Below the pieces are notes generated by a model. That model had not been told where the DNA came from. It made no database searches and saw nothing but the letters and a program-made list of their open reading frames with translations. Below, piece after piece: positions 697 through 55,943 of a stretch of DNA of 64,000 nucleotides. This DNA is from Torpedo marmorata. Taxonomy: Eukaryota. The position numbers and the translations under genes are program-made. The stretch spans positions 14,260,001 to 14,324,000 of the forward strand of contig OZ360230.1 in assembly GCA_977017645.1 (NCBI GenBank). Direction: 5' to 3'. Position 1 is the first letter of the stretch. Each line of letters opens with the position of its first letter.

Positions 697-2883
697 ACTC
701 ATACACTTCCAGAATCTTTTTCTACAGCAATAATTACAGTAATACCAAAAAAAGATAGAGACCCAGTGAAACTTTCATCATATAGACCAATTTCATTACT
801 GAATGCAGACTATAAAATTGTAGCGAAAATCTTGGCCAATAGGATAACAAAACTTTTGCCAAAATTAGTAAATATGGATCAAACAGGTTTTATAAAAAAA
901 AGACAAGCAGCTGACAATGTAGCAAGGTTACTTAGTATTGTTCATTTAGCTCAAAAAAGAAAAGTATTAAGTGTTGCGGTGGCACTAGATGCAGAGAAAG
1001 CTTTTGTTTAAAGTATTGGAGAAATTTGGATTTGGGCAGACTTATATAGATTGGATTAAAGCATTATATAATGCTCCAAAAGCTAAAGTAGTGACTAATG
1101 GACAAATATCAACTTCATTTTGCTTGACAAGATCTAGTCGACAAGGGTGCCCATTGTCACCAGCTTTATTTATATTAGCTATAGAACCACTTGCAGAGGC
1201 AATTAGAAGTGACTCGGCAATTAAGGGATATACAGTTGGTCAAGAGCAACATAAAATCAGCTTATTTGCGGATGATGTTTTAAAATATATTTGACAGAGC
1301 CTGAGACCTCTCTGCAAAGATTGCATTTTAAATTGGAAGAATATGGGAAAGTTTCAGGTTATAAAATAAACTGGGATAAAAGTGAAATTATGCCTCTTAC
1401 AGAGGGAGATTATACTGTATGTAAAAGAAGTACTCCGTTTAAATGGCCACATAATGGGATAAAATATCTAGGGATTCGAACAGACAATAATTTAAAAAAT
1501 CTATATAAACTGAATTATATACCATTACTTAAAAAGATTAAAGAAGATTTGGAAAAATTGATTAATTTACCTATTACATTGATAGGAAGAGTTAATTGTA
1601 TTAAAATGAATATATTTCCAAGGATACAATATTTGTATCAAACTATACCTATTTTACTACCACAGGTTTTTTTCCAGGATTTAAATAAACAAGTGCGAAA
1701 ATTTCTTTGGAAAGGTAAAATGTCAAGAGTTTCTATGGAACATTTAACATGGAAATATGAATTGGGAGGTTTACAACTCCCTAATTTTAAAAATTATTAT
1801 CGAGCGGCACAAATGAGATTTGTTGCTTCTTTTTTTGAAAGTGAAGGAAGACCTGCATGGGTTGGAATAGAGCTTGGAGAAATAGGAGAGAAAGTACCAG
1901 AAGAATTTATGTTTAAATGGAACTCAAAATTACTGATAGGAGTTAAAGAAACACCGTTACTAAAACATTTGATTAATGCATGGAACAAGATTAATGATGA
2001 GATAGGGATGAAAGGAACTATATCACCTAAAATGTCATTGATACAGAATAATCTCATACCTTTTACAAAAGATAATCAATTATTAAATATATGGTCACAG
2101 AAAGGAATAAATAAGATAGAAGATTGTTATGAAGGGAAGCAATTGATGTCGTTTGTACAGCTAAGAAACAAATATGGAATACCGAATAACACTCTTTTTT
2201 GTTATTTTCAATTAAGAGGTTATTTAAGGGAAAAATTAGGTCCGGATATATTGTTACAAGATTGTAGTGAGGTAGAAACCCTTATTAGGAAAGGAAATAT
2301 TTTAAAAATTACTTCTATAATATACTCTTTGTTACAAAGGGGAGCCTTAAAACAAGGACTTCATAAATCTAGACAAAGATGGGAACAAGATCTTAATGTT
2401 ATAATTGATGAAAAAAGATGGTCGGATTTATGTCAAGATAGTATGACCTATTAATGTAAGATATAGATTAGTACAGTATAATTTTTTACATCAACTATAT
2501 CTTACATCACAAAAATTGAATAAGATAAAATCTACATTATCAAATAAGTGTTTTAGATGTGGTGAAGAGGAGGGAACTTTTTTACATTCAACATGGTTAT
2601 GCTCTAAGGTAAAACATTTTTGGATGGAGTTAGGGAATCTGTTAAAACAAATTACAGGTGTCACATTTCCACAGAAACCTGATTTATATTTATTAGGGAA
2701 TGTGGAAGGAACTAGACCAAAGTTGAAGTTATCAACATATCAACTGAAATTTGTAAAAATTGCTTTAGCAGTAGCAAGGAAGTGTATAGCAGTAACTTGG
2801 AAATCAGATACAAATTTAGGTATGGATAGATGGAATATAGAGATGCGGAGTTGTATTCCATTGGAAAAAATAACATATAATAT
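697..2883 (+). mobile_element. 5'-truncated L1/Tx1 LINE ORF2 (RT and C-terminal region), frameshifted
   Basis: YRPISLLNADYKI, DAEKAF, RQGCPLSP, LFADD motifs and a CFRC..HSTWLC zinc knuckle; 7-bp TSD agatgtg at 690-696 and 9383-9389. Confidence 0.92.
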
Positions 2884-3785
2884 TGTTATGGACCATGACT
2901 GACCATTTGGACTGCGGACGGTTATCAGGAAGGATGAATTCTTTTGGAGTATACACTGGGGCCAGGTACTGAAAGAGTTAACTTCCCCAGCTACTTGGTG
3001 TACCCAGACAAGATACATTGTTGCACACTTCTGGTGTACCCAGACAGAGAGAGACCAGAGAGAGACAGAGACAGGCTGAACAAGATACATTTGTTTCACT
3101 TCTGCAAAAAGCAGGGGCAGATCTCTGCAAAGCAGACAGTTGTGAGTTGCAAGGCTACAGAACACAGCCAGATCCAGTTTTGTGTGCAAAAGTCAGAGAA
3201 AGACTGACAGAATAGCACATGGCCTCCTGTCTTCAGAGAAAAATTCTGAGAAAAGCAACTTCTGTGGAGAACAGGCGTGAGATCAGCGAGACTAGCTGTG
3301 AGATTCAAGCATACGCCTAAATCAGTGGTATACTGATCTGGAACTTGCAATCCTTATGAACCTACAAGAAGGGGACGTCATCAGAGAAGAAAACAAGTAT
3401 TTGTAAGCATAATCAGTCATTGTCTCTCTCCAACGTTCATTCAGAAGTACGTCTACCAGACCCAGAGCTGAATTGAAGCCTGAACTTAGAGAGTGAATCT
3501 TGTGGACTGTTTATCTTTTTTTTGACTGACTTGTTTTTTTATGACTGACCTGGGGTTTTTGGGGAAAGTTTTTCCATTTTTACATAAGGGTTGGGCACAG
3601 ACTATAATGGTCTGGGCTTTACACACACACACATACACCTTTTAGATAAGAATAGAGTTTATAGACGTTTATAGTGGGGTTAATTGTTGTGAAATTATAT
3701 GTTTACTTGTGTTTAATAAATAATGATTTCAATTTTACCCCTTTTGCATTGCGTCTTCTGTCATTGCTGGTTTGATTCTGTAACA
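2884..3785 (+). repeat. 5' LTR
   Basis: tgttatgg...tgtaaca; about 7 differences (hand count) from the copy at 7982-8882. Confidence 0.95.
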
Positions 3786-3788
3786 AAT

Positions 3789-3807
3789 TGGGGGCTCGTT
3801 GCGGGAT
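3789..3807 (+). promoter_or_regulatory. tRNA-Pro primer binding site
   Basis: tgggggctcgttgcgggat versus canonical Pro PBS TGGGGGCTCGTCCGGGAT, 3 nt after the LTR. Confidence 0.85.
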
Positions 3808-3919
3808 TTGAATCAAAATCTATCTTGGTAATTGAAGGAATCCCAGTTTGGTTTAAGGCATTCCTTTTGGTAAAGCTAATTAAAAGCTAGTGTGTGTATA
3901 ACAAAAAAAACCAGCAACA

Positions 3920-6900
3920 ATGGATGTAGAACATTTTTTGGAATCACCTGAACCTGATACTTTAAAAAAGGCGAAAAAGGAACAGTTAGTGGCTATAGCA
4001 ACAGAGTTGGGCATTGCTTCTGTAAAACCATCTATGAAAAAGGCAGAGATTGGGAGAAAAATTGTCAAGTACTATATAAAAGAAAAAAAGTTTGAGGAGA
4101 GCATGTTAGAGCAGTTTCCCAAGGATAAACCTTCTGAAAACATACAATTGGAAATAAAGAAATTGGAATTGGAACAAAATAAATTGGAGGCAGACAGGGA
4201 ACAAAAGAACAGGGAATTGGAACAAAAGAACAGGGAATTGGAGGCAGACAGGGAACAAAAGAATAGGGAATTGGAACAAAAGAAATTAGAATTGGAACAG
4301 AGGAAATTAGAATTGGAGATAGCCAGGGAACAGAAGAGATTAGACTTAGAGAATGAGGAGAAAAATAGGATATATATGCTGGAAAAGATAAAGTTGGAAA
4401 ATGAGAGGAGACAAGAAGAGCGCCAAGATCAAATTCGTCATCCTGCTGAGGGGTTTTTGGCTAGTAGAGAAGTTAGGTTGGTTCCTCCATTTGAGGAGGC
4501 AGAAATAGATAAGTACTTCCAACATTTTGAGAAAGTGGCTGTGAAATTGAAATGGCCACAAGACCAATGGTCTCTTATGTTACAAAGTGTAATTAAAGGA
4601 AAAGCTCAGCAAGCTTATTCTACTCTTACCACAGAACAAGCTGCTGATTATGAAACGGTGAAGAAGGCTATACTCCAGGCTTATGAGTTAGTTCCAGAGG
4701 CTTATAGACAGAAGTTTAGAAATCTAAAAAGATCAGCAACCCAATCTTATACAGAGTTTGCCTATGAAAAAGTTGTGTGTTTTGACAGGTGGTGCACATC
4801 TAAGGAAGTAAACAATGATTACAATCAATTGAGAGAATTGATAATAATCGAGGAGATAAAAAGGTGTGTTCCTGAGGATATTAAGGTATACTTAGATGAA
4901 AAGGAGGTGAAAACTTGGCGAGATTCAGCTAAGTTGGCAGATGGATATGCTTTAACCCACAAGCCTAAGTGGACGTCAGGTAGAATTTTCCAAAAGGTCA
5001 CGGTGGATAATCAGAAGCAAGTGGAAAGTAAATTTGGAAGTGGTGTTAAGGAAAGGGATGAAGGAAAGTGAAAAAGGGAAAACAATTCGGGTCCCATTTT
5101 CCACTACTGTAGGAAGGAAGGTCATATGATAGCAAGCTGTCCAGTGTTGAAAAAGAAGAGAGAAAAGGATGCAACACCTAATGCTTGTATTCAGAGTGAG
5201 AAGATGCATAACACCCAGGTAGGAGATAAATTTACTGACCAAGTTAAAGATGTATTTAAACCTTTTGTGACTGATGGTTTTGTTTCAGTTAAGGCAGGAT
5301 CAAAACAAGTGCCAGTGAAAATCTTGCGAGATACTGGAGCTGCTCAGTCACTTGTGTTAGATAGTGTCTTGGAATTTTGTGAAGCTACTGACACCGGTGA
5401 CATAAATTTAATAAAAGGAATTGGTGGTGAGGTTGAGTCCATTCCTTTGCACAAAATAGTATTGAACTCAGACTTGGTGGAAGGACCAGTTATAATAGGA
5501 GTGAGATCAGAGTTGCCAGTAGAAGGAGTCTCACTGTTGTTAGGCAATGACTTGGCCAAGGGTAAAGTAGTTCCTGCAGTGCCAATGACCACTAAGCCAG
5601 TCATTGATAAGTCAGAGAAAGACTCTGATATTTGTCCGGCATGTGCCATAACCAGGGCCATGTCTAAGAAAAATGTCACTGTAGAGAAGGCAGTGGAAAA
5701 TAACTTGGAAAAAGAAAAAGAAACTGATAATCAAGAAAACCTGGAAAAGGTTGAGCAATCTCCTATGTTACACCCATCCACTGATAAGACACCTAAAGGC
5801 ACAGATTTGTCACTATCCCGACAGGAGTTAATAGCAAGGCAAAAGGACGATCCGGATCTTGCTGAGGTGAGGGATAAGGTTCTCTCTGAAGAGGAGATTA
5901 AAAAGGTGCCAGTAGGGTATTATGAAAAAGATGGGGTGTTGATGAGAAAGTGGAGACCACGTGATGTTCCTGCCAATGAAGAATGGGCAGTAGTGCAGCA
6001 GGTTGTGATCCCTAAAGTATATAGGGATGAAATAATAACTTTGGCTCATAGTACAACCTTAGGTGGTCATCTTGGGGTGAAGAAAACTATAAGTAAGATA
6101 ATGAAACAATTTTATTGGCCCAGTTTGAGAAGGGAGGTTGTAAGCTTTTGCCGGGCCTGTCACACTTGTCAGGTGGTGGGTAAACCTAATCAGGGTCCCC
6201 CGGTGGCACCCTTGCAACCTATCCCTGCTTTCAGTGAGCCTTTCTCGAGAGTAATTGTGGACTGTGTTGGCCCATTGCCCAAAACCAAAGCGGGGAATGA
6301 ATATTTGTTAACAATTATGTGTGCAGCCACCAGATTTCCAGAGGCCATTCCTCTGAGAAACATAAAAGCAAAGTCAATTGTAAAGGCTATGGTAAAGTTT
6401 TTCACCTTGGTAGGTTTGCCAAGAGAAATTCAATCAGATCAGGGCAGTAATTTCATGTCAGGCGTTTTCCAACAAGTGGTTGATGGACTAGGAGTTAAAC
6501 AGATTGTATCCTCTGCGTACCATCCAGAAAGTCAAGGGGCCTTGGAGAGGTTCCATTCGACTTTGAAAACCATGATTAGAACCTATTGTTGTGAGAAGGA
6601 AAAGGATTGGGATGAGGGGGTTCATTTGTTGTTATTTGCAGCGAGGGAGTCTGTCCAAGATTCGCTTGGTTTTAGTCCATTTGAGTTAGTTTTCGGACAT
6701 GAGGTGAGAGGTCCTTTAAGATTATTAAAAGAACAGTGGATTAATCGTGATGTGCATTTAAATCTGTTAGACTATGTTTCCAAATTTAAGGATCGGTTAC
6801 ATAGGGCTTGTGAGATGGCACAGGAGAATTTAAAGGCCACTCAACAGAGAATGAAGGTTTGGTATGATCGAAAGGCGAAGATGAGGACTTTTAAACCTGG

Positions 6901-7849
6901 TGAGAACGTATTAGTTCTGTTTCCCATCCATTCAAATCATCTTAGGGCTAGATTTTCAGGACCCTATAGAGTTAAGTAAAAAATTAATGATGTCACCTAT
7001 GTTATAGAGACACCTAATCGCAGACGAGACACACAGGTCTGTCATGTGAATATGATTAAGCCATATTTTGAACAGGTGCCACACAAAGGGACTGAAAATT
7101 TACCAGAGGTACTGGTTATTGACAGGGGTAAGGAGGAGACAGATAAAACCAGTTTCAGAGAGGGTCATGGGACTGTTAATTCTCGGGGTTATGTTGTAGG
7201 ACAGGGGAATTTGGCGCCAGTAGAGGCAAAGGTTGTCGCTATTTCCGAGTTCCCTGTTCCAACTGGTAAGAAAACTCTGAGGAGGTTCCTGGGAATGATT
7301 GGCTACTACCGCAAGTTCTGTAAAAACTTTGCTGATCTTGCGCTCCCTCTCACAAATTTGCTTAGAAAGAAAGAGAAATTTGTATGGTCTACAGGTTGTC
7401 AGGAAGCATTTGTCAAATTGAAAGCCATGTTATGCCACCAACCTGTGCTTAAGTCACCTAATTTAGAACAGTCGTTTTCTTTAGCCGTGGATGCGAGCGA
7501 TGAAGCTGTGGGTGCGGTGCTGTTACAGAAGAAGAACGAAGAGGACATTGACCATCCGGTATCCTACTTCTCGAAGAAGTTCAATGATCATCAAAGGAAT
7601 TATTCAACTATAGAGAAAGAGTTGTTGGCTCTTGTGTTGGCTCTACAACATTTTGATGTGTATATCTGTACAGCTCAAAAACCACTCATAGTGTATACTG
7701 ACCATAATCCATTGGTTTTTCTTTGTAAAATGAAAAATAAGAATCGACGGTTGTTGAATTGGAGTCTAATTTTACAAGAATATAATTTGGTAATCACTCA
7801 TATAAAAGGGAGAGATAATGTAATTGCTGATTGTCTTTCTAGATGTTAA
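3920..7849 (+). pseudogene. Gag-Pol polyprotein in one frame with two in-frame stops (5069-5071, 6977-6979)
   Basis: SCAN-like region YETVKKAIL..LRELIIIEE; protease ILRDTGA; integrase HHCC plus VDCVG/SDQG/LERFH; RNase H AVDAS..YSTIEKE..YTDH..ADCLSR; the three listed ORFs share one frame. Confidence 0.92.
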
Positions 7850-7969
7850 ACTTTATCAATGAAAATAGTTCATATTTTGTATTTGTGGATGAACATTGTA
7901 GATTTTGTTTATATTCTGACACCTCACTTACTTTCCTAAATTTTGTTCTTGCAGACCAAAATTTCCTTT

Positions 7970-7981
7970 GAGGGTGGGAGG
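7970..7981 (+). other. Polypurine tract
   Basis: gagggtgggagg immediately before the 3' LTR. Confidence 0.85.
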
Positions 7982-8882
7982 TGTTATGGACCATGACTGA
8001 CCATTTGGACTGCGGACGGTTAGCAGGAAGGATGAATTCTTTTGGAGTATACACTGGGGCCAGGTACTGAAAGAGTTAACTTCCCCAGCTACTTGGTGTA
8101 CCCAGACAAGATACATTGTTGCACACTTCTGGTGTACCCAGACAGAGAGAGACCAGAGAGAGACAGAGACAGGCTGAACAAGATACATTTGTTTCACTTC
8201 TGCAAAAAGCAGGGGCAGATCTCTGCAAAGCAGACAGTTGTGAGTTGCAAGGCTACAGAACACAGCCAGATCCAGTTTTGTGTGCAAAAGTCAGAGAAAG
8301 ACTGACAGAATAGCACATGGCCTCCTGTCTCAGAGAACAATTCTGAGAAAAGCAACTTCTGTGGAGAACAGGCGTGAGATCAGCGAGACTAGCTGTGAGA
8401 TTCAAGCATACGCCTAAATCAGTGGTATACTGATCTGGAACTTGCAATCCTTATGAACCTACAAGAAGGGGACGTCATCAGAGAAGAAAACAAGTATTTG
8501 TAAGCATAATCAGTCATTGTCTCTCTCCAACGTTCATTCAGAAGTACTTCTACCAGACCCAGAGCTGAATTGAAGCCTGAACTTAGAGAGTGAATCTTGT
8601 GGACTGTTTATCTTTTTTTTGACTGACTTGTTTTTTTATGACTGACCTGGGGTTTTTGGGGAAAGTTTTTCCATTTTTACATAAGGGTTGGGCACAGACT
8701 GTAATGGTCTGGGCTTTACACACACACACATACACCTTTTAGATAAGAATAGAGTTTATAGACGTTTATAGTGGGGTTAATTGTTGTGAAATTATATGTT
8801 TACTTGTGTTTAATAAATAATAATTTCAATTTTACCCCTTTTGCATTGCGTCTTCTGTCGTTGCTGGTTTGATTCTGTAACA
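7982..8882 (+). repeat. 3' LTR
   Basis: Direct repeat of 2884-3785. Confidence 0.95.
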
Positions 8883-9382
8883 ATATGAGAAATAAATATG
8901 GGGTCTTTTTGTAAATTTGGCGTCCATATATCCAATCATTAGGTATGAATATTTAAATGCGTTGCTCTACATCCTAGACCCTGTTGACTCTCTCAAATTT
9001 AAAGAATAAAAATACTGTTGAATACCATGCGTCGAGCTGTGGACCCAGCAGCGATCCATACAGATGTTTTAATAAGTAATACTAATACCTTCTTTTCTGT
9101 TTTCTTTTTTAGTTTTTAGTAAAGGGAGGGAATTAAAGGGAGGGGAGGGTGGAGGGTGGGGTAGAAACATTTAACATTTAATACTAAGTAATAATTTTAA
9201 TTGTAATGTTTGGAAGATATATGGGGTGGGGGGGGGTTAAGGGAAGGGATAGATACACTATGTAATACAAATTATGTTTTTTTTATTTACTGGAATTAAT
9301 AATGTATATTATATACGTTGTATTACTGTGTGAAAAATTAAAAAATTTAAAATAAAATATTCAAAAAAACCCAAAAAAAACC
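8883..9382 (+). mobile_element. L1 ORF2 end, 3' UTR and A-rich tail (continuation of 697-2883)
   Basis: Removing the LTR element restores KITYN-MRNKYGVF; G-rich UTR, AATAAA, A tail. Confidence 0.9.
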
Positions 9383-15765: not shown

Positions 15766-16029
15766 AAAAGTAAACAGTAAACACGAAAATCTGTAGACAC
15801 CGTGGTTGAAGTAAAAAACACAAAAGCTGGAGAACTCAGCAGGTCAAACAGTGTCTTTTATGTAGCAAAGGTAGAAATACATAACCGACGTTTCAGACTT
15901 GAGCCCTTCATCAAAGTATGAGAAAATGCCGGCAGGCGTCCCGGCATTTTCTCATACTTTGATGAAGGGCTCAAGTCTGAAACGTCGGTTATGTATTTCT
16001 ACCTTTGCTACATAAAAGACACTGTTTGA
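15766..16029. mobile_element. Penelope-derived fold-back insertion
   Basis: Perfect 89-bp inverted arms at 15844-15932 and 15941-16029; 14-bp TSD gatccatggatgta at 15752-15765 and 16028-16041. Confidence 0.9.
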
Positions 16030-20607: not shown

Positions 20608-21648
20608 GTAAGAAACCTACCAGGGAATCCTATAAAGACTCATTAACTTGTCAGTTGAAATGAATGTAAACCAATCAAGTTTAGTGACCTTGATAGGAAT
20701 GAGGAGAAGGAAAAGATGGAAAGGCAACAGACCGATAATTGTGTGTCTAATGAAGATAATGCTTTGAGTGGTGATGTATGTGAATTAAAATAGCTGTATG
20801 TTGATTGTAAAGATGGATTTGCTTCTATTTTTGTGACTATGGAATGTTCCTCCTTCATGCAACTATCAATTACTGAACAGTTTTCTTCCATTGATTTTGA
20901 TGTTATCCTGGTTTGTTGTTTGAGTGGGTCGCCTACCAAGAACCTCCTCCAGGAAACTGATTCTATCCTGATAGATAAAGCCCTGTGTAACACCAAGCTT
21001 TCTGATTCTTAATCCTTTGAAATGGTTAAGCATACCTGGTTAAGATGAATGAATTGTTAAAGTTGTAACACAGCTTAAAATGTTTGTATCTGTCGCTAAT
21101 GTTTACCATTACTCAAAGCATTCAAAAGCAATACAAATTTATCACACTTTTTAGTTTTTAAACTGAAAATGAATTAAACGAATATTTTAAAAAAACATAA
21201 CACTTGGAAATACTTAAAAATAAAAAAAAATACATTTAAATTAACTCAATCATTTCAGAGTTATGTGTATATTCCTCTCCATTGAAATGGCTGTGCCAAA
21301 TCTTACCTGATGCAGAAGATTTCCTAGAGTAATGTAAAACAATAGGAGCTATAAACTTTGAGAAAATTGGGACTTGCATGTTCATGCATACTCGAGCAGG
21401 AGGTCCAATCACACCGCGAATTCTGACAGTTCCAAACAGCATTTTTGTGGAAATATTTGGCTATTCACATTATTAAGCATTATTAAGAACATATTATTAG
21501 AAAATTACTCCTCTAATGTAAAGTGGGAATAAAAGATTAAACTTATGGCTCAATAGTGCATATTTTCCATTTAAGATTTTCAAACATAACATAGAATCAA
21601 GAGTTTTCCATTTGTTGCCAAAGTATAGCCATTATGTGGATCAGTGGG

Positions 21649-21813
21649 CAAGCCACACAGTGGACACACAGATCAAGCCACACAGTGGACACACAGATCA
21701 AGCCACACAGTGGACACATAGATCAAGCCACACAGTGGACACACAGATCAAGCCACACAGTGGACACACAGATCAAGCCACACAGTGGACACACAGATCA
21801 AGCCACACAGTGG
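21649..21813 (+). repeat. 25-bp tandem array (about 6.5 copies)
   Basis: Unit gatcaagccacacagtggacacaca, near-perfect. Confidence 0.95.
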
Positions 21814-23842
21814 CCGAAGGCAGATGACACCTCTCAAGGCACCTCCTCTTACACCTTCAACAGGACCCCTCCCACCAAAACTCATCAAACCATCATCTCA
21901 CGCACTATCTCTGAACTCATCACTTCCGCTCATCTCCCTTCCACGGTCTCCAACCTTATTGTTTCCCATACTGCCCGGTTCTGCCTCCTACCCAAGATTG
22001 ACAAAACCAACTGTCCCAGTAGACCCATTGTTTCCGTGTGCTCCTGCCCAACCGAACTGGTATCCGCTTACTTTGACTCTGTTTTGTCCCCCCCGGTCCA
22101 GACCCTCCCCACATACATCCGGGATACTTCACATGCCCTCCACCACCATGGACATCCAATTGTTCTACACCTCCATCCCTCATACTGAAGGCCACAAAGC
22201 CCTTTGTTTCTTCATCGAAAACAGACCCAGCCAGTCCTCCTCCACCATCTGGCAGAACTTGTCCTCACCCTCAATAACTTCTCAATTGACTCATCCCACT
22301 TTCTCCAAGTCAAAGGGGTAGCCATGGGTACCTGCATGGGCCCCAGCTATTCCTGCTTTTTTGTTAGCTACGTGGAGCAATCCATGCTCAAGCCTGCACA
22401 GGCAAGGCTCCTCAAAGCTTCCTCCGCTTCATTGATGACTATATTGGTGCTCCATTATGCACCCATGATGAGTTTGTCGACTTTATCAACTTTGCTGCCA
22501 ACTTCCACCCCGACCTCAAATTCACTTGGTCCATCTCCAGCAACACTCTCCCCTTCCTCAATCTCCCTGTCTTCATCTTGGGAGACAAACTGAATATTTT
22601 CTACAAATCCACCAACTCCCACAGCTACCTTAACTACACCTCTTCACACCTTGACCCCTGTAAGAATTCCATTCCTTTCTCGTAATTCCTTCATCTCCAT
22701 CGCATCTGTTCCCTGGATAAGGTCTTCCATGTGAGATCATCCAAGATGTCCTCCTTCAAAGATCGTGGCTTCGCCTCTACTACCATCAACTCAGCCCTCA
22801 CCCACATAGCCTCCATTCCTCACACATCTGCCGTGGTCCCCTCTGTCTCCATACGGAACAAGGACAGCATTCCCCTTGTCCTCACCTACCACCCAACCAG
22901 CCTCTGCATCCAACATATCCTCCTCCACCATTTCCGCCACCTACTATGGCACATCTTCCCCGCTCCTCCCCTCTCCACCTTATTCAGGGACCACTCCCTC
23001 CATGACTCCCTCATCCACTCCTTCCTTCCCATCAATCGCCCCCTTGGCTTCTACCCCTGTGACCAAAGGAAATGTTACACTTGCGCCCACACGTCCTCCC
23101 TCACCACCATTTGGGGTCCCAATGAGTCCTTCCAAGTGAAGCAACACTTCGCTTTTGGATCTACAGAAGTCATCTACTGGATCCGGTGCTCCCATTGTGG
23201 TCTCCTCTACATCGGAGAGGCTGGACACAGACTGGGAGATCGCTTCATTAAGCACCTTCGCTCTGTCTGCTGCAATAGCGGGGATCTCCCAGTGGCAACC
23301 ATTTCAATTTCCACCTCATTCCCATGTCGTCATGTCTGTCCATGGTCTCATGAACTGCCAGTCTGGGACAACCCGCAAATTGGAGGAACAACACCTCATA
23401 TTCCATCTGGGCCCCCTCCAACCATATGGCATTTACTTCTCTGGTTTCCATTAGGCTCCCCCCATCCCTGCCCGACTCTCTCTTTCCCTATCCCGATGTC
23501 TCATTTCCTCTAGCGCTCTCTCTCTCTCCCTCTATCTCGTTTCCTCCAGCCACCCCTTCCCCCAATTAATTCTCACCTTTCCTCTCCAGTCCTCCTATCC
23601 ATGTCCAATTATCTCCTTTTTTCTTTTGGCCTGTGCTTCTCCCCCTGCCCTTTCTTCCCTCCTCCCCCAGCCTTTTTATTCTAGCGCCTGCCTGTATTTT
23701 GCTCATACCTTGACGAAGGGCTCAAGCCCGAAACATTGGTTATATATCTTTACCTCCTATGGACGCTGCAAGACCTGCTGAGTTCCTCCAGCATTTTTGT
23801 GCTTTTACTACAATCACAGCATCTAGAGACTTTTGTTATTTC
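21814..23842 (+). mobile_element. Penelope-like element (RT and GIY-YIG), frameshifted
   Basis: LPKIDKTNCPSRPIVS, GVAMGTCMGP, IYWIRCSHCGLLYIGE; terminal repeat with hammerhead-like motif at about 23710. Confidence 0.9.
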
Positions 23843-24076
23843 AGCCACACATATGTGTGCAACTGGTGTGAAGCGCCATTAGCTGCTTCAAAAATAGATA
23901 ACTGTAAAAGATGTTTTTTTTGGACTTGGTGGAGCAGAAGAAAATGGAAGAGCATTTGCAAGAGGTAACCCGTATTTTTACGCATATAACGCGCTATGCG
24001 TTTTTTTACAAACCAGGTACCCCCGCGCTTTATATGCGTGTGTGCACTATACGAGAATATTTTTACTTGCTGAAAC

Positions 24077-24340
24077 AACGCGCACAATTTATAGCGGGCG
24101 TGGGAAAGTCGCACCAGCAATTTATAGCGAGTGTGGGAATGTAATAGCGGCAATGAAAGAACGCGCACAATTAATAGCGGGCATGGGAATGTAATAGCGG
24201 CAATGAAAGAACGCGCACAATTTATAGCGGGCATGGGAATGTAATAGCGGCAATGAAAGAACGCGCACAATTTATAGCGGGTGTGGGAATGTAATAGCGG
24301 CAATGAAAGAACGCGCACAATTTATAGCGAGCGTGGGAAT
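24077..24340 (+). repeat. 50-bp minisatellite inside the MITE (about 5 copies)
   Basis: Unit aacgcgcacaatttatagcgggcatgggaatgtaatagcggcaatgaaag. Confidence 0.9.
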
Positions 24341-24349
24341 TGGGTACAT

Positions 24350-24500
24350 ACAAAATGGCAAAATTCAAAATTTTGTTCTTGGGAATATCTCTTTGGCCTG
24401 AGTGCCATGGTATTCCGAGAAAAAGGATATTCTGGCTAGGGCACTGCACCTTATCAATGTTAATTGCCCAGACCCGTCCCCTGAGGGAGGAGATTAACAT
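24350..24500 (-). pseudogene. Retroviral (ERV-L/class III-like) RT fragment
   Basis: RVWAINIDKVQCPSQNILFLGIPWHSGQRDIP resembles recalled ERV-L pol [31 protein letters not shown]. Confidence 0.6.
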
Positions 24501-32317: not shown

Positions 32318-35300
32318 TGTTACAAACTCAAACCAGCAATGACAGAAGACGCAATGCAAAAGGGGTAAAATTGAAATTTATATTTATTAAAGACAATCAA
32401 ACATATAATTTCACAACAATCAACCCCACTATAAACATCTAAAAACACTATTCTTATCTAAAGAGTGTGTGTGTGTGTGTGTGTAAAGCCCAGACCATTA
32501 CAGTCTGTGCCCAACCCTCAAGAAAAAAAATAGAAATCCTTCCCCAAAACCCCAGGTCAGTCATAAAAATAAGTCAGTCCCAAAAATACAGTCCACAAAA
32601 ATCACTCACTATGTTCATGGCACGAAGGACTTCTTAATGAACATTGGAGAGAGAGACAATAACTGTTTAAGCTTACGAATGCTTGGCCTGCTTTTCTTCC
32701 CTGATAACTTTCCCTTTTGGTAGGTGCACGAGGACTGCGATTCCAAATCAGTATACCGCTGATTGAGGCGTATACTTGGATTTCACAGCCTGTCTTGCTG
32801 ATCTCACGCCTGTTCTCCACGAAAGTTGCTTTATCTCAGTATTTTGCTGATACAGGAGGCCATGTGCTATTCTCCCAGCCTTTCTCACTGGAATGCACAA
32901 GCCTGTTTCTGATGTTGTTGCTTCAGCCTTTTGCAACTCCAGACTGAATGCTTTTTGCAGCGGTTTGCACCTGCTTTTGCAAAAGTGCAACAAAGTATCT
33001 TTCCACAGCCTGTCTCTCTCTCTCTCTGAGTACGCCAAGTCCTGGGCAAGTTAACTCTTTCAGTACCTGGTCCCAGTGTGTACTCCAAAAGACTTCATCC
33101 TTCCTGCTGACCGTCTGCAGTCCAAATGGTCAGTCATGGTCCATAACACCTCCCACCCACAAAGAAAATTTTGGTCTGCAAGAACAACATTTTGGAAATT
33201 AATTGAGGTGTCACAATATAAACAAAACCCACAATGTTCATCCACAAACACAAAAATATGAACTCTTTTCATTTATAAAGTTTAGCATCTAAAAAGACAA
33301 TCAGCGATTACATTATCTTTCCCTTTTATATGTGTTATCATTAAATCGTATTCTTGCAAAATTGGACTCCAATTTAACAACCGTCGATTCTTATTTTTCA
33401 TTTTACAAAAAAACCAATGGATTATGGTCAGTATATACTATGAATGGTTTTTGAGCTGTACAGATATACACATCAAAGTGTTGTAGAGCCAACACAAGAG
33501 CAAACAACTCTTTTTCTATGGTTGAATAATTCCTGTGATGATCATTGTACTTCTTCAAGAAGTAGGATACCGGATGGTCAATGTCCTCTTCGTTCTTCCT
33601 CTGTAACAGCACCACACCCACAGCTTCATCGCTGGCATCCACGGCTAAAGAAAATGGCATTTCTAAATCAGATGACTTAAGCACTGGTTGGTGGCATAAA
33701 ATGGCTTTCAATTTGACAAATGCTTCCTGACATCCTGTTGACCATACAAATTTTTCTCCCTTTCTAAGCAAATTTGTGAGAGGGAGCGCAAGATCTGCAA
33801 AGTTTCTACAGAACCTGCGGTAGTAGCCAATCATTCCCAGGAACCTCCTCAGAGTTTTCTTACCAGTTGGAACAGTGAACTCGGAAATAGTCACAACCTT
33901 GGCCTCTACTGGCGCAAACATAACCCAAATAAGTAACAGTTCCATGACCCTCTCTGAAACTGGTTTTATCTGTCTCCTCTTTACCCCGGTCGATAACCAG
34001 CACCTCTGGTAAATGTTCAGTCTCTTTGTGCGGCACCTGTTCAAAATATGGCTTAATCATATTCACTTGTCTGCGATTAGGTGTTTCTATGACAGAGGGT
34101 GACCTCATTAATTTTTGACTTAACTCTATAGGGTCCTGAAAATCTAGCCCTAAGAGGATTTGAATGTGTGGGAAACAGAACTAATACATTCTCACCAGGT
34201 TTAAAAGTTCTCATCTTGGCCTTTCGATCATACCAAACCTTCATTCTCTGTTGAGTGGTCTTTAAAGTCTCCTTTGCCATCTCACAAGCTTTATGCAACC
34301 GATCCTTAAATTTGGAAACATAATCCAACAGATTTAAACACACATCACTATTAATCCACTGTTCTTTTAATAACCTTAAAGGACCTCTCACCTCATGTCC
34401 GAAAACTAACTCGAATGGACTAAAACCAAGTGATTCTTGGACAGAGTCCCTCGCTGCAAATAACAACAAATGAACCCCCTCATCCTAATCCTTTTCCTTC
34501 TCACAACAATAAGTTCTAATCATGTTTTTCAAAGTCGAATGGAACCTCTCCAAGGCCCCTTGACTTTCTGGATGGTACGCAGAGGATACAATCTGTATAA
34601 TTCCCAGTCTATCAACCACTTGTTGGAATACGCCTTGCTGTGTGTTTTGTTACAGAAGGTGCCACTGCCTGACATGAAATTACTACCCTGATCTGATTGA
34701 AGTTCCCTTGGCAAACTTACCAAGGTGAAAAGCTTTACCATAGCCTTTAAAATTGCCTTTGCTTTAATGTTTCTCAGAGGAATTGCCTCTGGAAATTTGG
34801 TGGCTGCACACATAATTGTTAACAAATATTCATTCCCCGCTTTGGTTTTGGGCAATGGGCCAACACAGTCCACAATTACTCTCGAGAAAGGCTCACTGAA
34901 AGCAGGGATAGGTTGCAAGGGTGCCACCAGGGGACCCTGATTAGGTTTACTCACCACATGACAAGTGTGACAGGCCCGGCAAAAGCTTACAACCTCCCTT
35001 CTCAAACTGGGCCAATAAAATTGTTTAATTATCTTCAGTATAGTTTTCTTCACCCCAAGGTGACAACCTAAGGGTGTGCTCTGAGCCAAAGCTATTATTT
35101 CATACCTATATACTTTAGGGATCACAACCTTCTGCACCACTGCCCATTCTTCAGTGGCAGGAACATCACATGGTCTCCACTTTCTCATCAACACCCCATC
35201 TTTTTCATAATAACCCACTGGCACCTTCTTAATCTCCTCTTCAGAGAGAACATTATCCCTCACCTCAGCAAGATCAGGATCCTCCTTTTGCCTTGCTATT

Positions 35301-37372
35301 AGCTCCTGTCGGGATAGTGACAAATCAGTGACTTTAGGTGTCTTATCAGTGTATGGGTGTAACACAGGAGATTGCTCAACCTTTTCCAGGTGTTTTTGAT
35401 TATCACTGACTTTTTCTTTCACCAATTTATTTTCCACTGCCTGCTCTACAGTGACATTTTTCTTAGACATGGCCCTGGTTATGGCACATGCCGGATAAAT
35501 ATCAGAGTCCTTCTCTGACTTATCAATGACTGGCTTAGAGGTCATTCGCACTGCAGGAACTACTTTATCCTCAGCCAAGTCATTGCCTAGCAACAGTGAG
35601 ACTCCTTCTACTGGCAAATCTGATCTCACTCCTATTATAACAGGTCCTTCCACCAAGTCTGAGTCCAACACTATTTTGTGCAAAGGAATGGACTCAACAT
35701 CACCCCCAATTCCTTTAACTAAATTCATTTCACCGGTGTCAGTGGCTTCACAAAATTCCAGGACACTATCTAACACAAGTGACTGAGCAGCTCCAGTATC
35801 TCGTAAGATTTTCACTGGAACTTGCTTTGATCCGACCTTAAATAAAATAAAACCATCAGTCACAAAAGGTTTAAATACATCCCTAACTTTGTCAGTAAAT
35901 TTGTCTCCTTCCTGGGTGTTACGCCTCTTCTCACTCTGAATACAAGCATTAGGTGTTGCATCCTTTTCTCTCTTCTTTTTCAACACTGGACAGCTTGCTA
36001 GCATATAACCACCCTTCCTATAGTAGTAGCAAATGGGACCCGAAGGGTTTTCCTTTTTCCGCTTCCCTTCATCTCTTTCCTTAACACCACTTCCAAATTT
36101 ACTTTCCATTTGCTTGGGATTATCCACAGTGCCCTTTTGGAAAATTCTGCCTGACGTCCACTTAGGCTTGTGGGTTAAAGCATATTCATCTGCTAACTTA
36201 GCTGAATTTTGCCAAGTTTTCACCTCCTTTTCATCTAAGTATGCCTTAATATCCTCAGGAACACACCTTTTTATCTCCTCAATTGGTATCAATTCTCTCA
36301 ATTGATTGTAATCATTCTTTACTGCCTTTAATGTGCACCACCTGTCAAAACCCACAACCTTTTCATAGGCAAACTCTGTGTAAGATTGGGTTGCTGATCT
36401 TTTAAAATTTCTAAACTTCTGTCTATAAGCCTCTGGAACTAACTCATAAGCCTGGAGTATAGCCTTTTTCACCGTTTCATAATCAGCAGCTTGCTCCGTG
36501 ATAAGAGTAGAATAAGCTTGCTGAGCTTTTCCTTTAATTACACTTTGTAACATAAGAGACCATTGGTCTTGTGGCCATTTTAATTTCACAGCCACCTTTT
36601 CAAATCAACCCCACTATAAACGTATATAAACACTATTCTTATCTAAAGAGTGTGTGTGTGTGTGTGTGTGTGGGTAAAGCTCAAACCATTACAGTCTGTG
36701 CCCAACCCTCAAGAAAAAAGTAGAAAACCTTCCCCAAAACCGCAGGTCAGTCATAAAAATAAGTCAGTCCCAAAAATACAGTCCACAAAAATCACTCTCT
36801 ATGTTCAGGGTCCAAATTCAGCTCTGTGCGCTGGCACAAAAGACTTCTTAATGAACGTTGGAGAGAGAGACAATGACTGTTTAAGCTTACGAATGCTTGG
36901 CCTGCTTTTCTTCCAATGGCTTTTCCTTTTGGTAGGTGCACGAGGATTGCGATTCCAAATCAGTATACCACTGATTGAGGCATGTACTTGGATCTCACAG
37001 CCTGTCTCGCTGATCTCACGCCTGTTCTCCACGAAAGTTGCTTTATCTCAGTATTTTGCTGATACAGGAGGCCATGTGCTATTCTCCCAGTCTTTCTCAA
37101 TGGAATGCACAAGCCTGTTTCTGATGTTGTTGTTTCATCCTTTTGCAACTCCAAACTGAATGCTTTTTTCAGCGGTTTGCACCTGCTTTTGCAAAAGTGC
37201 AACAAATTACCTTTCCACAGCCCGTCTCTCTCTCTATGTGTCTCTCTCTCTGAGCACAGCCAGTCCTGGGCAAGTTAACTCTTTCAGTACCTGGTCCCAG
37301 TGTGTACTCCAAAAGACTTCATCTTTCCTGCTGACCTTCCGCAGTCCAAATGGTCAGTCATGGTCCATAACA
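32318..37372 (-). mobile_element. Second Gmr1-type Gypsy copy (different LTR subfamily), RT core missing, with a deletion of U5/PBS/5' gag
   Basis: TSD attg (32314-32317, 37373-37376); 3' LTR 32318-33148; partial 5' LTR about 36603-37372. Confidence 0.93.
33282..36602 (-). pseudogene. Gag(SCAN)-PR-IN-RH, frameshifted
   Basis: Highly similar to 3920-7849 at protein level. Confidence 0.9.
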
Positions 37373-38226: not shown

Positions 38227-39180
38227 CCGTATATACTCATGTAAAAGTCGACCACCTATTTTTGTCCAAAAAATCTGGAATTTTCCATATACAGTATTTC
38301 ATGTAAATGTCGACGTTAGACTCTCACCTCGGCCCCGGCTGACCCCAGGCCGGAGCTTCCGACACCTCGGCCCCGGCCGCCCGCCCATTGGAGCTCCTGA
38401 TGCCTCTAACATGGACTATCGCCTCAGCCCCAGCCGCCCACCCATCGGAGATCTTGATGCCTTGAACGTGGACTCTCACCTTGGCCCGGCCGCCCGCCCA
38501 TTGGAGCTGCTGATGCCTTGAACGTGGACTCTCACCTCGGCCCTGGCCGCCCGCCCATCAGAGCTCCTGATGCCTTGAACGTGGACTCTTGCCTCGGCCC
38601 GGCCGCCCGCCTATTGGAGCTGCTGATGCCTCGAACATGGACTCTCACCTCGGCCCGGCCGCCCGCCCATTGGAGCTCCTGATGCCTCTAACGTGGACTA
38701 TCGCCTCAGCCCCAGCTGCCCACCCATTGGAGATCTTGATGCCTCGAACGTGAACTCTCGCCTCAGCCCCGGCCGCCCGCCCATCAGAGCTCCTGACGTC
38801 TCAAATGCGAACTCTTGCCTTGGCCCTGGCCACCTGCCGATCGTAGTTCCTGATGCCTCGGTCACGAACTCTCGCCTCAGCCTCGGCCGCCCGCCCATCG
38901 GAACTCCCGATGCCTCCGATGATGCAGATACGTACTGCGGTACTGACCTCCCCCCGTAGTAGGACGTGTGTTTTGATGTTCAGACTCTGTATTATTACTT
39001 TAATTGTGTTTTTGTTCTTTATTCGTTTAGTGATCATTTGGACTTCTGCTACTGATATGGTATTTTGGATTCTAGTGTGAATTTCAGCCTCTCAAAAGTA
39101 GTATCCATGTAATAGCCGACCCCATAAAATTAACATTAAAAATGGTCTGCAAAATTCGACTTTTACACGAGTATATATGG
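38227..39180. mobile_element. Non-autonomous Tc1/pogo-type DNA transposon (MITE)
   Basis: TIRs ccgtatatactcatgtaaaagtcga / tcgacttttacacgagtatatatgg; TA flanks. Confidence 0.85.
38310..38920 (+). repeat. GC-rich 57-bp minisatellite (about 10 copies) inside the MITE
   Basis: Unit aacgtggactctcacctcggccccggccgcccgcccattggagctcctgatgccttg. Confidence 0.9.
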
Positions 39181-45904: not shown

Positions 45905-46205
45905 TGATGAGCCCATCAATAACTCCAAAAGACTAGAAGTTACACAAGAACTGAAAGGCTTTTATTAGCAAAAGAATGGAGCTACATTCGTGCTGGTGAT
46001 CTGTCCCGGACTGGGGGAGGAGCCGTGGCACAATGGCCTTTATTCAAGGGGGTTTGTGGGAGGAGCCACCGGGACAGTCAGCAGGGCATGTCCAGACTTA
46101 TCGCCTAGCCCACAATCCATATACAGTGGTTTACCACATTCACCCTTCCTTTTTAAAAGAGTCCAGCGGGGTGAAGTGTATAATAACATTTACAAGAGAT
46201 TAACA

Positions 46206-47252
46206 TTACAGATCGAGTCGATCAGGCGGTCGAGTTTGCCCTTGTGATCGGCGCAGTACTTGTGGTGATGGGGCAGGTGGCGGAGCTACCTCCTGCCTGA
46301 TCTGGGGTACTGCCACGTCTGGTGATCGCGAAAATGCTGGTGCGTGTGGTGTCGTGCTGGAATTGAGTGGTGCCTCAATGGTAGGCAAGGGGGTAACCGT
46401 AACAAGGGGGTGTTCGAGGGCAGGTTCCAGTGCTCCTGCGGGCGCCAGGTCCCGGATGGAGACCGTGTCTTCCCGCCCATCAGGAAAACCCACGTAGGCG
46501 TACTGGGGGTTTGCATGTAATAATTGGACCCTCTCGACCATTGGGGCGTATTTATTGCTCCTGACATGTTTGCGGAGCAGCACTGGCCCTGGGGACGTCA
46601 GCCATGCTGGTAGGGTAGTCCCGGTGGTCGACTTCCTGGGGAAGGAAAAGAGTCTCTCATGAGGTGTAGCATTGGTGGATGTACATAGCAGGGATCGGAT
46701 AGAGTGGAGTGCCTCGGGAAGGACTTCTTGCCAGCGGGAGACTGATAATCCCTTAGACCTGAGGGCTAAGAGTGTGGCCTTCCAGACCGTGGCGTTCTCC
46801 CTTTCTACTTGTCTGTTACCCCGTGGATTATAGCTCGTGGTCCTGCTAGTGGCGATTCCCTTGGCCAGCAGATATTGTCGCAGCTCGTCACTCATAAATG
46901 AGGACACCCGGTCGCTATGGATATAGCAGGGGTATCCAAACAACGTGAAGAGTTTGCGGAAGGCCTTTGTGACTGAGGTGGTCGAGGTATCGGGGCAGGG
47001 AATGGCGAAAGGGAACCGCAAGTACTCATCAATAACGTTGAGGAAGTACACATTGCGGTCAGTGGAGAGAAGTGGGCCCTTAAAGTCGACGCTGAGTCAC
47101 TCAAATGGGCGGGTTGCTTTTATTAACTGTGCCCTGTCAGGACGGTAGAAGTGCGGTTTGCACTCTGCGCAGACTTGGCAGCTGCTGGTCATCGTCCTGA
47201 CCTATTCCAGGGAGTACGGTAGATTACGGGCTTTCACAAAGTAAAAAAGCCT
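46206..47252 (-). pseudogene. Gypsy integrase (portion 3' of the BEL insertion)
   Basis: CQVCAEC, VDFKGP, IHSDR, QVEREN; contains stops. Confidence 0.9.
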
Positions 47253-50200
47253 TGTAGCGACTTCAACCAATAAAAATAGTCGCTTGGAGGCTAAGTTAGG
47301 CGTTTGTCTGCGACGCGTTTTCATTTATTTCCAATACAAGTTCAGTTGTATTTAAATTCTTTATTTTTAACACACAAAACTTGTAACCATCTTCTTTAAT
47401 GTTCTATGAAAAGTCTTTAAGTAACGTTCTATGTGGCTGATTCTTAATAACAAAATATTCATATAAAAGTTAACGTGGCTTAACGATGCTTAACGATCTT
47501 TAACGATGTTCAACGATATTCAACATAGTTCAACGATCTTTAACGTCTTGATGATGCTTAACTTTCTTTAACGCTGGCTTGACGTGTTTTAAAGGTGTTT
47601 TAAACGTTCGACAGAAATTGTCGACACCTAACTTACCCTCCTCAGATTTCCAACTGCCCATGCACGCGGGGGAACCTATATTTAAATGTACGAAGATCCC
47701 ACCCGCGCATGCTCCGTTGTGCACGCGCTGGCCCTGGCTCCAACCGTTCGCTGCCAGCACTGAGCCAAGTGCACGTGTCGACCCAGTCCATGGCGCATGC
47801 GCACTGGCGGATGCGCCAGCCCCGGCTGAAGCCGCTGCCGCTGAACCAACCGCGCATGCGCCGCCACGTTCCGGCTCCGTAAGTGGTGCCGGCCCTCGCG
47901 CATGCGGCCTACGGGAAGAGGCCTACGCACCCTGGGACACCGCCAGTGCCCGAGGCCAAAACAGCAGGTAAGTACTGAGCCTATGGCTCTTACACCGGCC
48001 CCTAATTATTATAATGAGATGTAACGTCTCTAATAATAATTACATAACTATAATCTATTATATATAACAATTAACTACATAACATTCGAACGTTACACAG
48101 GTCTCTTTTCATCTTCACTTCCACTCTGAAGTCCGTATAGTGGGCAAAGTACAAAACACAAAAATCCAACAAAATAAAGTCAGTTTGTACTTATTAAAGT
48201 TCCTCCGTCTACTGTAGAATCCATGAGCCAAACCGTTGACCAGCAAACCTCAGATCTTCCTCAGACAGAATAGACACAGCTTTCCTTTTGAATTTAACAC
48301 AAGGCACTTCTTCAACATGTCGTTTCACTTTATTTCTTTTTTCAGTATTCCACTTCTCATGTGAAGAATTTAAACTCTTAGAACTGGAATTTGAATATTT
48401 ATTTGATCCTTTCGATTTTAAACAGGTCTGTTTAACCACTCTGGTTTCTATTGCCTTTTCCTGCAATTCCAAATCCAATTTTGCAACTTTCAATTCGGTC
48501 TCAGTTCTTTCCGAGAAATTAATAATTTGATCTGAAGTCAAAATATCATGTGATACGTTGATATTTCTATTGTCAATCCTGTTGCGACAAACTTGAAATT
48601 TTTTAATTTCTTCATCTTGCTTGTTACATTTCTGCAATGCAATATCACATTCTTTCTGCATTGTTAATTGTTTTGTGTTATTAATCAATAACTTGTTCTC
48701 TTTCAAAACATTAATCTCTTCCTCCAACCTTTTACATTTTGATAATGCTGAATCTCTTTCCTCGATAACTGTATTCATTTCTTCAGCAGTTATTCTTTTC
48801 TTCTGCTTTCTGACTTTGCGAGTTTTACTTACAATTAAATCTTTCTGTTTACTGTTTTCTTGATTATCTAATATTTCCAATTCCCCTTTCAACATTTTGT
48901 TCTCTGAATTCAATTGCATTAAATTATCATTCACATTATTCTTTATTCCATCAGTACAGTTTTCTGTGTTTTCCAGGTTTACATCACATTGTAATATTTC
49001 TTCATTAGCTTTGTCTGTTGTATTCTCTGAACTACAAAATTTACATTCAGATTTGTTTTCAGTCACTTGTTTTATTCCTGTATTGGATTCAATTACACAT
49101 GAATGATCAATAGTATTATTTGCAACATTTTCTAATACTTCACTTTCATCCATTTCTGACGAAATTAATTCCTTCAGTGTTGTTTTAAATACCATTGATT
49201 TATTTTCACATTGATCTGTTTTCTTTTCTTCAAAAGTGATTTTCTTATTCACAGTTTTTTGCTCTTCGCTTAACTCTTCAACTTTCACAACCGAAATTCT
49301 ATTAATATTTATCGCTAACTGTTCCTGAGCAATATCATTATTTCTTTCCAGTGGTCCATTGATTGTCCAACCAAACTTGGTTCTAATAGCGTAAGGTCCA
49401 TTCCTTTTACTCTCTATTACTTCTTTCGGTTCCAAAACCTTTGGCACATCTGAACCAATCAGCATTTCTATCTCAGAATTAATTTCAGGTAAATAAACCT
49501 TCCACAGATAAGCTAAATGATGGATATCCCTTTGATGAGGAATATTTCCTTCATTCACAGGCATAGTCTTCTGAGTATATACACTTGGAAGATCACAAAT
49601 TTTTTTGTCATCCAATCCAGCAACCTCTAAGCCTGAAACAATGTTAGTTTCAACAACCTTTTCTTGTCCCATTGTTCTTAACATAATTCTTGATCTTCTT
49701 CCTTGAATATTAAGTTTATTCATTAGTCCTTCCGTGCAAAAGGATGCAGTGCTGCCTGGGTCTAAAAATGCATATGTTTTTACTATTACATCCCCTTTCT
49801 TGGCCTTGACTTGTACAGGCACTATTGAAAGTTTGAAGTTATCCACACCGGCCCCAGTAAGACCACTTGTCTGAACCGAGGTTATAACATTATTTTCTGT
49901 TGTTTCCTTTGTTTCTGTTTGCTCTTTTCCCAATTCCTTGTTTCTGTTATGGATATGCAAAATTCTAGGATGTTTCAAATTGCATATGTTACAATTAATT
50001 CGCTTCTCGCAGTTTTTACTGATGTGTCCTTTACACAAACAGCTAAAACATATTCCATTTTCCTTTAAGAAAGCGATCTTTTCCTTATGTTCCTTCTTTT
50101 CCAATCGTAAACACATTTCCAAAGCATGTCCACCTTTACAGAACAAACAACTTTTTTCATTAGGCAAACTTTCCTTTTCCTTATTTACTTTGTCATTTTC

Positions 50201-53183: not shown

Positions 53184-53185
53184 AT

Positions 53186-55099: not shown

Positions 55100-55329
55100 C
55101 CTGTGTCAGCTCGCTGGTGTGGAATAAAATGGCCGCTCCCATGACTCGCACGTGTTGGCGGCAGGTAGGTAAGATGGCGGCGCCGGAAGTGACGAAACCC
55201 AAGATGGCTGCCCCCATACCTCGCACGTGTTGGCCGCGGCGGCGGGTAGGTAAGATGGCGGCGTCGGAAGTGACGACACACAAGATGGCCGCCCCTGAGT
55301 CTCGCACGCGGCACTGCTCGAACCCGCTC

Positions 55330-55943
55330 GCGGCTTTGATCAGCAGACCTTAGCGAAGTGGCCTTTCTTCCCGCAGCTGGAGCAGGTCGCTTCTCAGGCC
55401 GGGCAACGTTTTCGGGGGTGCTTCTCAAGCCCGCAGAAATAGCATTTCTCGGGCTCGCGGCTGATGGCGGCAGTGGTTGATTCACTAGCATGGTGGGTGG
55501 TCGGCATCCACGGAGCCTGCTGGAGATCGCACGCTTGGATAGCATCCGAGTTCTGTAGCGCGGCCTCCAGCGTGTCGGCCAGTTCGACGGCGGAACGGAA
55601 GGTGAGGTCAGCTTGTTCCAGCAGCCGCTGGCGCACATATACTGACCTGGTCCCTGTGACAAAAGCGTCTCTCCCTAGGAGCTCTGCGTGCTGTTCAGCC
55701 GTCAGTCCCCGGCAGTCGCACGCCCGCACGAGCGTTTGTATGGCCCGTACGAACTCCGCGTTCGACTCCCCGAGCCGCTGCTGCCGCATCGCTAGCCTGT
55801 GCCTTGCATTTTTCGGCGTCTTCTTGCACCTTGATCTCCCCCAGGAACGATTCGAAACAGACTAGCCAGCGTTCGAAGGCATTGCCAGCGTCCGGTGTTT
55901 GTGGGTCGATGTCCAGTTTGTCGGGTCTCTAGATGTTCTCCAT
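55330..55943 (-). pseudogene. Gypsy gag, disrupted
   Basis: ATG at 55943 (MENI*RPDKLDIDP); knuckles CYFCGLEKHPRKRC and CSSCGKKGHFAKVC. Confidence 0.8.

Follow-up and report, generated by a model that had tools for sequence, protein, structure and literature searches.

Among plant LTR retrotransposons, the semi-autonomous families TR-GAG, RLG_Sabrina/WHAM (with Wilma) and RLG_Quinta (with Cereba) are described as high-copy, coding elements that lack reverse transcriptase (RT) and are mobilized by autonomous partner elements (PMC9744471, PMC11302176). In sugar beet, 15 families with Pol remnants are termed partly decayed (PMC13570524). In mouse IAP 1-delta-1 elements, an internal deletion creates a single cis-acting fusion protein; these elements need proteins supplied in trans and are the source of most new IAP insertion mutations (PMC6466679, PMC7411935). 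The Gmr1 clade is distinguished by a SCAN-type gag, a single Gag-Pol frame and an integrase located upstream of RT and RNase H (PMC3587641, PMC11117352, bioRxiv 10.1101/2025.03.03.638093). The Ty3 RT, finally, is a dimer in which subunit A provides the polymerase and subunit B the RNase H, the thumb and RNase H of subunit B having to shift by ~40 Å (PMC5371799).

Here we analyzed a 64-kb stretch of the Torpedo marmorata contig OZ360230.1 (the window), which contains a young Gmr1-type LTR retrotransposon at 2884-8882 (copy 1) and an older, decayed relative (copy 2). We favor the reading, to which we assign a probability of about 0.68, that they represent a semi-autonomous, RT-less subfamily of a Gmr1-like (Ty3/Gypsy) LTR retrotransposon that is mobilized in trans, the missing RT probably being borrowed from rarer intact relatives. 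The features of the two copies are as follows.

2880..2883, + strand: left target-site duplication (TSD) of copy 1, ATAT
2884..3785, + strand: 5' LTR of copy 1, 902 nt, TG...CA, identical to the 3' LTR at 895/902 positions
3789..3806, + strand: primer-binding site (PBS) of copy 1, from position and sequence
3920..7849, + strand: Gag-PR-IN-(RT core missing)-thumb-RNase H in one frame, ATG at 3920, 1309 codons, two stops in copy 1
4694..4963, + strand: SCAN-like capsid C-terminal domain of gag (Pfam PF02023, E 9e-11)
5069..5071, + strand: premature stop 1 of copy 1, after gag; copy 2 is open there (its ORF 34529-36604 reads through)
5324..5341, + strand: protease active-site motif LRDTGA, from the motif, with no Pfam match
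6008..7063, + strand: integrase with HHCC finger, D-D-E core and GPY/F C-terminal domain (Pfam PF17921, PF00665, PF22938 and motifs)
6977..6979, + strand: premature stop 2, in the integrase C-terminal domain, atypical of the family (depth at 6978 in runs X1, X4, X7 and X9)
7070..7173, + strand: first part of the integrase-RT linker, kept and containing a hydrophobic stretch; the copies differ by 6 synonymous and 2 non-synonymous changes
7163..7174, + strand: deletion junction, break after 7173 (loose ends past 7173 in 21 X1 contigs; X4 record 14 begins at 7163)
7174..7846, + strand: palm end, thumb and RNase H; all four acidic active-site motifs are present, and the segment matches residues 257-475 of Ty3 RT
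7970..7981, + strand: polypurine tract (PPT)
7982..8882, + strand: 3' LTR of copy 1, 901 nt
8883..8886, + strand: right TSD of copy 1, ATAT
32318..37372, - strand: copy 2, older decayed member, junction at ~33939, TSD CAAT
36603-37372, - strand: 5' LTR of copy 2, truncated
32318-33148, - strand: 3' LTR of copy 2

Copy 1 is bounded by LTRs that both carry TG...CA ends; 6 substitutions and a single 1-nt gap separate them across 902 positions, in agreement with an earlier estimate of about 7 differences in 900. A first-pass annotation of this DNA had described a recent Gmr1 insertion devoid of an RT core, and the LTR match, the TSDs, the absence of an RVT_1 match and a short integrase-to-RT spacing all bear this out. 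The PBS is presumably of the tRNA-Pro type. Copy 1 shares with Gmr1-like Ty3/Gypsy elements the SCAN capsid, the single fused Gag-Pol frame, the integrase upstream of RNase H (Pfam order SCAN, integrase, RNase H), the TG...CA LTRs, the PBS, the PPT and the TSD, but it lacks the RT fingers and palm and comprises 1309 codons as compared with 1506-1634 aa for Gmr1-4 (PMC11117352). All catalytic motifs of the kept domains are retained, which at ~5% divergence is weakly informative. Gag, protease, integrase and RNase H had been said to remain in frame; they do share one frame, but the stops at 5069-5071 and 6977-6979 interrupt it in copy 1, and copy 1 itself is dead. By eye, copy 1 seems to have inserted into a LINE ORF2-like frame at its 3' end (1276-2883 and 8887 onward), and this frame resembles the ORF at 60600-61736.

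Pfam analysis of the three ORF pieces of copy 1 identified SCAN, Integrase_H2C2, rve, Integrase_p58_C and RT_RNaseH, and the RT polymerase core with its YxDD motif, the mark of an autonomous Gmr1 element, is absent. A tblastn search with the RT core of P0001, an RT-intact protein of Pristis, gave no significant match in copy 1 or copy 2, its sole significant match in the window being an unrelated Gypsy element at 53912-54496. The integrase-end and RT-end motifs are separated by 48 aa in copy 1. Both landmarks are present in 116 of 120 homologues, where the distance is 209-326 aa (median 302.5). When copy 1 is aligned with P0001, the alignment stops at residue 1052 of copy 1 and restarts at 1082, where P0001 jumps from 916 to 1197; about 255 codons, comprising the RT fingers and most of the palm, are missing in frame. 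The match of the kept C-terminal part to Ty3 RT has an E value of 3e-36, and the Ty3 catalytic residues D151, D213 and D214 (PMC5371799) lie upstream of the matched region.

The junction itself required one revision of the earlier description, in which the protein resumed at the end of RT with the residues GHG. Loose ends of contigs from the public run X1 continue from the linker past 7173, which places the breakpoint after that position and assigns GHG to the integrase-side linker and not to RT; among the X1 rows listed, no loose end from the RT-end side matched the junction. We infer, partly from homologue proteins, a short look-alike stretch common to the linker and the RT end at this point. 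In the third place of the equivalent RT-end motif, both window copies have G before T-V as opposed to A in 96/112 homologues, indicating that both crossed over on the same side of the homology, and this mildly favors a single origin. The deletion could in principle stem from misassembly or from splicing out of an intron that skips RT, given that spliced gene models mimic RT loss at the protein level and that P0141 looks like one. We regard this as very improbable, since two diverged copies on opposite strands carry the deletion, an independent contig of run X4 (record 13, 6907-7226) bridges the junction without gaps, and the first letters lost after 7173 are AC and not GT, for which reason a splice origin of the window junction was rejected. 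The X4 bridge, from another organism, is one contig of depth 7.5 and may be trace carry-over; the long X4 contigs all resemble one near-uniform sequence, a pattern equally expected of trace DNA of a high-copy host.

As the first-pass annotation had proposed, copy 2 carries, as read from the sequence, the same junction peptide as copy 1, and both copies have TSDs. These are CAAT in copy 2 and ATAT in copy 1. Its own LTRs are 0.056 apart (K2P) and it has acquired six internal indels. The 5' LTR end, the PBS and the gag N-terminus are missing, a loss that postdates insertion because the 3' LTR is complete. Between the two copies, the K2P distance is 0.072 in the internal region and 0.137 in the LTRs, and neither stop of copy 1 occurs in copy 2. 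The common junction of two copies with an internal K2P of 0.072 supports the favored reading. They are the only two family members within the 64-kb window, and both are RT-less.

To place these copies within the wider family, we turned to public sequencing runs, 20 of the 23 listed containing part of the stretch (18 organism codes); four of them (X1, X4, X7 and X9) were aligned to 5800-7981. In X1, 108,377 contigs aligned, with a summed depth of 1.2-3.0 million across all 30 bins; the junction bin has a depth of 1.84 million, and no depth gap occurs there. Dividing the X1 depth by 31 overlapping words and by a single-copy depth near 30 suggests a family of a thousand copies or more, summed depth being distinct from copy number. 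At 6978, 98.5% of the X1 depth and all of the X4, X7 and X9 depth has another letter, so stop 2 is not typical of the family. Among the pieces listed, X9 has low-depth pieces on either side of the junction and none across it. From X7, which we guess to be RNA, long contigs were obtained on 5800-7981 at a depth of about 800-1,100, close to copy 1 and open at stop 2, and none of the X7 pieces listed bridges the junction. The exact junction had 0 matches in metagenome contigs.

The X1 contigs also offer a view of the putative partner. Partial fits number 1,295, and the share of contigs that run on into unlike sequence rounds to 0. Of all 108,377 aligned contigs, 21 depart after 7173, the largest loose-end group among those listed and similar in size to a group of 17 contigs departing at 7459. 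Past 7173 their loose letters, only 30 in number, read in frame by eye as T-Q-K-L-I-S-P-R-L-E followed by N or K. This peptide fits the motif [RKH][LVM]xN[SQ], which occurs within 95 residues after the integrase in 102/119 RT-intact homologues, at a background rate of 242/2,380 windows. We read these 21 contigs as the likely RT-intact partner, which seems scarce when contigs are counted: with each contig covering 31 letters or more, an average X1 position is covered by at least about 1,500 of them, so that the intact type makes up a few per cent by count, with the caveat that contig counts are not copy counts, loose ends come without depth, and a young, uniform RT-intact subfamily would yield few high-depth contigs.

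That RT-intact copies nevertheless form the bulk of the family, with the RT-less form a minor derivative seen twice in the window by chance, appears improbable. It would be in keeping with the poor alignment of short contigs that leave the reference and with the position of the lowest of the 30 X1 bins (7187-7259), which adjoins the 3' side of the junction, although the odd bases of copy 1 near 7178-7186 may explain that bin. It would also agree with the state of Gmr1 elements elsewhere. In metagenome and genome collections, an alignment to the thumb-RNase H region retrieved 88 loci, 68 of them with an integrase end and a thumb and 20 without a usable pair; full RT is present in 68/68 informative loci, at a spacing of 287-342 codons as compared with 47 and 49 in the window copies. 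Against it stand the negligible share of X1 contigs running on unlike, a junction group comparable in size to that at 7459, and the RT-less state of both family members in the 64 kb. Of the two outcomes that had been named beforehand as counting against an RT-less lineage, an RT-intact majority was not seen in X1 by contig count, and neither was an overall dN/dS of about 1 (see below).

Three further observations come from the same collections. Gmr1-like loci L080-L085 lie in bacterial or archaeal genome bins, with full RT in L080-L083 and L085, and are probably animal DNA carried over. Loci L004-L008 comprise several Gmr1 copies at intervals of ~6 kb on a single 35.6-kb contig, which points to a tandem array. 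Locus L051:1740-2411 comprises thumb-RNase H, and its upstream part within the contig has neither integrase nor RT homology.

At the protein level, no relative of more than 78% identity was found. Both landmarks are present in 196 proteins. Of these, 16 are devoid of PFG and YxDD and have a spacing of at most 168; 173 have a spacing of at least 300, 171 of these with YxDD. The query favors matches that keep the thumb, so that the common boundary of the RT-less proteins is biased. In a tree of the thumb-RNase H region (43 rows, all of Gmr1 order, with no outgroup, the RT core being unusable), copy 1 groups, with a support of 98/97, with two ray proteins whose RT is intact, P0001 from Pristis and P0003 from Hypanus. 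The 8 RT-less rows of this tree require 8 changes, at least 4 of which are forced by well-supported branches. Single RT-less proteins (P0157, P0140, P0295, P0142, P0185, P0149, P0204, P0461 and P0346) may stem from individual deletion events or be products of spliced models.

The sea urchin Diadema setosum presents a more substantial case. Ten of its gene models (P0136, P0404-P0411 and P0416) have the organization Gag-PR-IN-thumb-RNase H without PFG or YxDD and share one common junction on 9 contigs that differ in length, the nine cluster members being 94.6-99.2% identical to P0136. Nine of the 16 RT-less proteins are from this species, and the tenth model, P0405, equals P0136 in length and landmark positions. 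The alignment of P0407 with the RT-intact P0417 is complete apart from the RT gap, and the 120 best matches include no D. setosum protein that is near-identical and RT-intact. In contrast to the window element, these models have a different breakpoint, lie on a separate tree branch and are known from predicted proteins alone. They likely represent an independent RT loss of a similar kind at the protein level, with spliced models a possible source.

To assess constraint on the retained frame, we compared copy 1 with copy 2 only; dN/dS is quoted for equal rates and for kappa 4. Over all 1,090 aligned codons it is 0.36/0.52 (p 7e-12 / 6e-6; bootstrap 0.27-0.48 and 0.40-0.69). By region, it is 0.22/0.34 in gag, 0.36/0.52 in integrase and 0.24/0.38 in RNase H (p 9e-4 / 0.02), and within 300 nt on either side of the junction it is 0.31/0.43. 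The PR-IN spacer is neutral-like (0.88/1.28), and neither the thumb (0.52/0.72) nor the zinc knuckle with protease (0.55/0.77) falls significantly below 1. The selection on retained domains that the first-pass annotation had suggested as possible is supported for gag, integrase and RNase H. Values of dS (0.107-0.143) are near the LTR divergence of 0.137. Because neutral decay after insertion is included, raw dN/dS understates the constraint; subtracting that decay (0.031, from the LTR pairs) gives an overall 0.18/0.32, a rough correction to which we prefer the raw values. Family-splitting sites show a synonymous excess of 10:2 (38 coding rows among the best 40 of 286), which is biased because rows were picked by support across runs. 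The retained gag, integrase and RNase H frame thus appears to be under purifying selection, in a two-copy comparison that fits selection on RT-less ancestors and selection on intact ones equally. RNase H is the last domain of the frame, so its constraint does not serve to reach a later domain.

The low dN/dS could instead have been earned by RT-intact ancestors, the RT-less form being a plain parasite with a functionless coding sequence. In that case, either several intact subfamilies would each have undergone the deletion at the short homology, or continued template switching would import domains from intact partners on both sides of the junction. The homology makes recurrence plausible, a likely intact partner with a common linker is seen, both window copies are broken, and recombination between partner lineages is described in RLG_Quinta (PMC11302176). 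Yet the signal persists in the linker and in the 300 nt flanking the junction, the crossover lies on the same side of the homology in the two copies, and the apparent rarity of intact-type contigs (21 as compared with at least about 1,500 per average position) implies that most co-packaged RNAs are RT-less. We consider this account unlikely, though it is the more serious of those weighed here. The proposal that an RT-less lineage borrows RT in trans gains from the abundance of the family, the absence of a junction gap and the 21 RT-continuing contigs, and it is recurrent deletion or recombination that qualifies it.

For the favored reading, a semi-autonomous subfamily mobilized in trans, we propose the following course. 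One in-frame deletion of ~255 codons would have removed the polymerase catalytic core, probably by a template switch at the short stretch in which the integrase-RT linker resembles the palm end of RT. What is left comprises the LTRs, the PBS and the PPT, together with gag, protease, integrase, thumb and RNase H in one frame. The RNA would be translated into a Gag-PR-IN-thumb-RNase H polyprotein that could build particles and package its own RNA. Integrase may be freed at the kept hydrophobic linker, which we infer to hold a possible protease site; the hydrophobic stretch is present in 161/204 RT-intact proteins. The polymerase would come from the co-assembled protein of the rarer RT-intact partner. 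Integration is normal, with TG/CA ends and 4-bp TSDs. Copies supplying working protein would replicate better, which would keep the frame under purifying selection. As to why RNase H is kept, we would give somewhat more than half of the weight to a need for a folded C-terminus and an open frame for cis preference, as in IAP 1-delta-1, under a third to the supply of RNase H in trans, and the small remainder to carry-along by recombination.

Comparison with the described systems shows what sets this element apart. In the plant families, as described, integrase is missing along with RT, and gag or gag-protease is what remains (PMC9744471, PMC11302176), whereas copy 1 keeps the integrase with its HHCC and D-D-E motifs, as well as the thumb and RNase H, in frame. 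IAP 1-delta-1 is retrovirus-derived and has lost part of gag and pol through a 1.9-kb deletion, whereas in copy 1 gag and protease are whole and the polymerase core alone is lost. Subunit B of Ty3 is a full-length RT; copy 1 keeps the thumb-RNase H fragment, that is, its mobile part. A search of the main texts of openly accessible literature found no account of this architecture, and curated repeat libraries may already contain such a non-autonomous entry. Non-autonomous deletion derivatives are common. This one seems distinctive in that the loss is narrow, the deleted form apparently dominates, the terminal RNase H is constrained and a sea urchin offers a likely parallel.

A bolder and doubtful extension is that Gmr1 elements repeatedly yield successful lineages without a polymerase core, in which the thumb and RNase H would act as a stand-alone, minimal "subunit B" for a helper RT. 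If this is true, two elements evolving together would divide reverse transcription between them, and the arrangement would have arisen independently in the Torpedo host and a sea urchin. Apart from this extension, the semi-autonomous LTR families known to us from the literature retain gag, with or without protease, and a family that loses the polymerase core alone while integrase and a terminal RNase H stay under amino-acid constraint shows which Pol functions are worth supplying in cis. Such a family offers a natural way of testing whether polymerase and RNase H are contributed by different RT subunits, as found for Ty3. Surveys that require an RT domain, as in the full-length definition of PMC11117352, would overlook such families entirely.

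The window contains several other repeats. An LTR element at 47252-53184 has repeats of ~740 nt that are 96.9% identical. Its 971-aa ORF contains DUF1759, which we take to be a BEL/Pao-type gag, and a protease-like motif. No ORF of at least 100 aa within it has YxDD, and it is possibly another non-autonomous element. It splits a Gypsy element on the - strand (45905-56212; 246-nt LTRs, 98.4% identical) whose RT reads YLDN for YxDD. A perfect 89-nt inverted repeat with an 8-nt loop lies at 15844-16029, and tandem arrays are located at 38316-38939, 21624-21848, 24071-24367 and 59080-59415, with periods of 56-57, 25, 50 and 48 nt, respectively.
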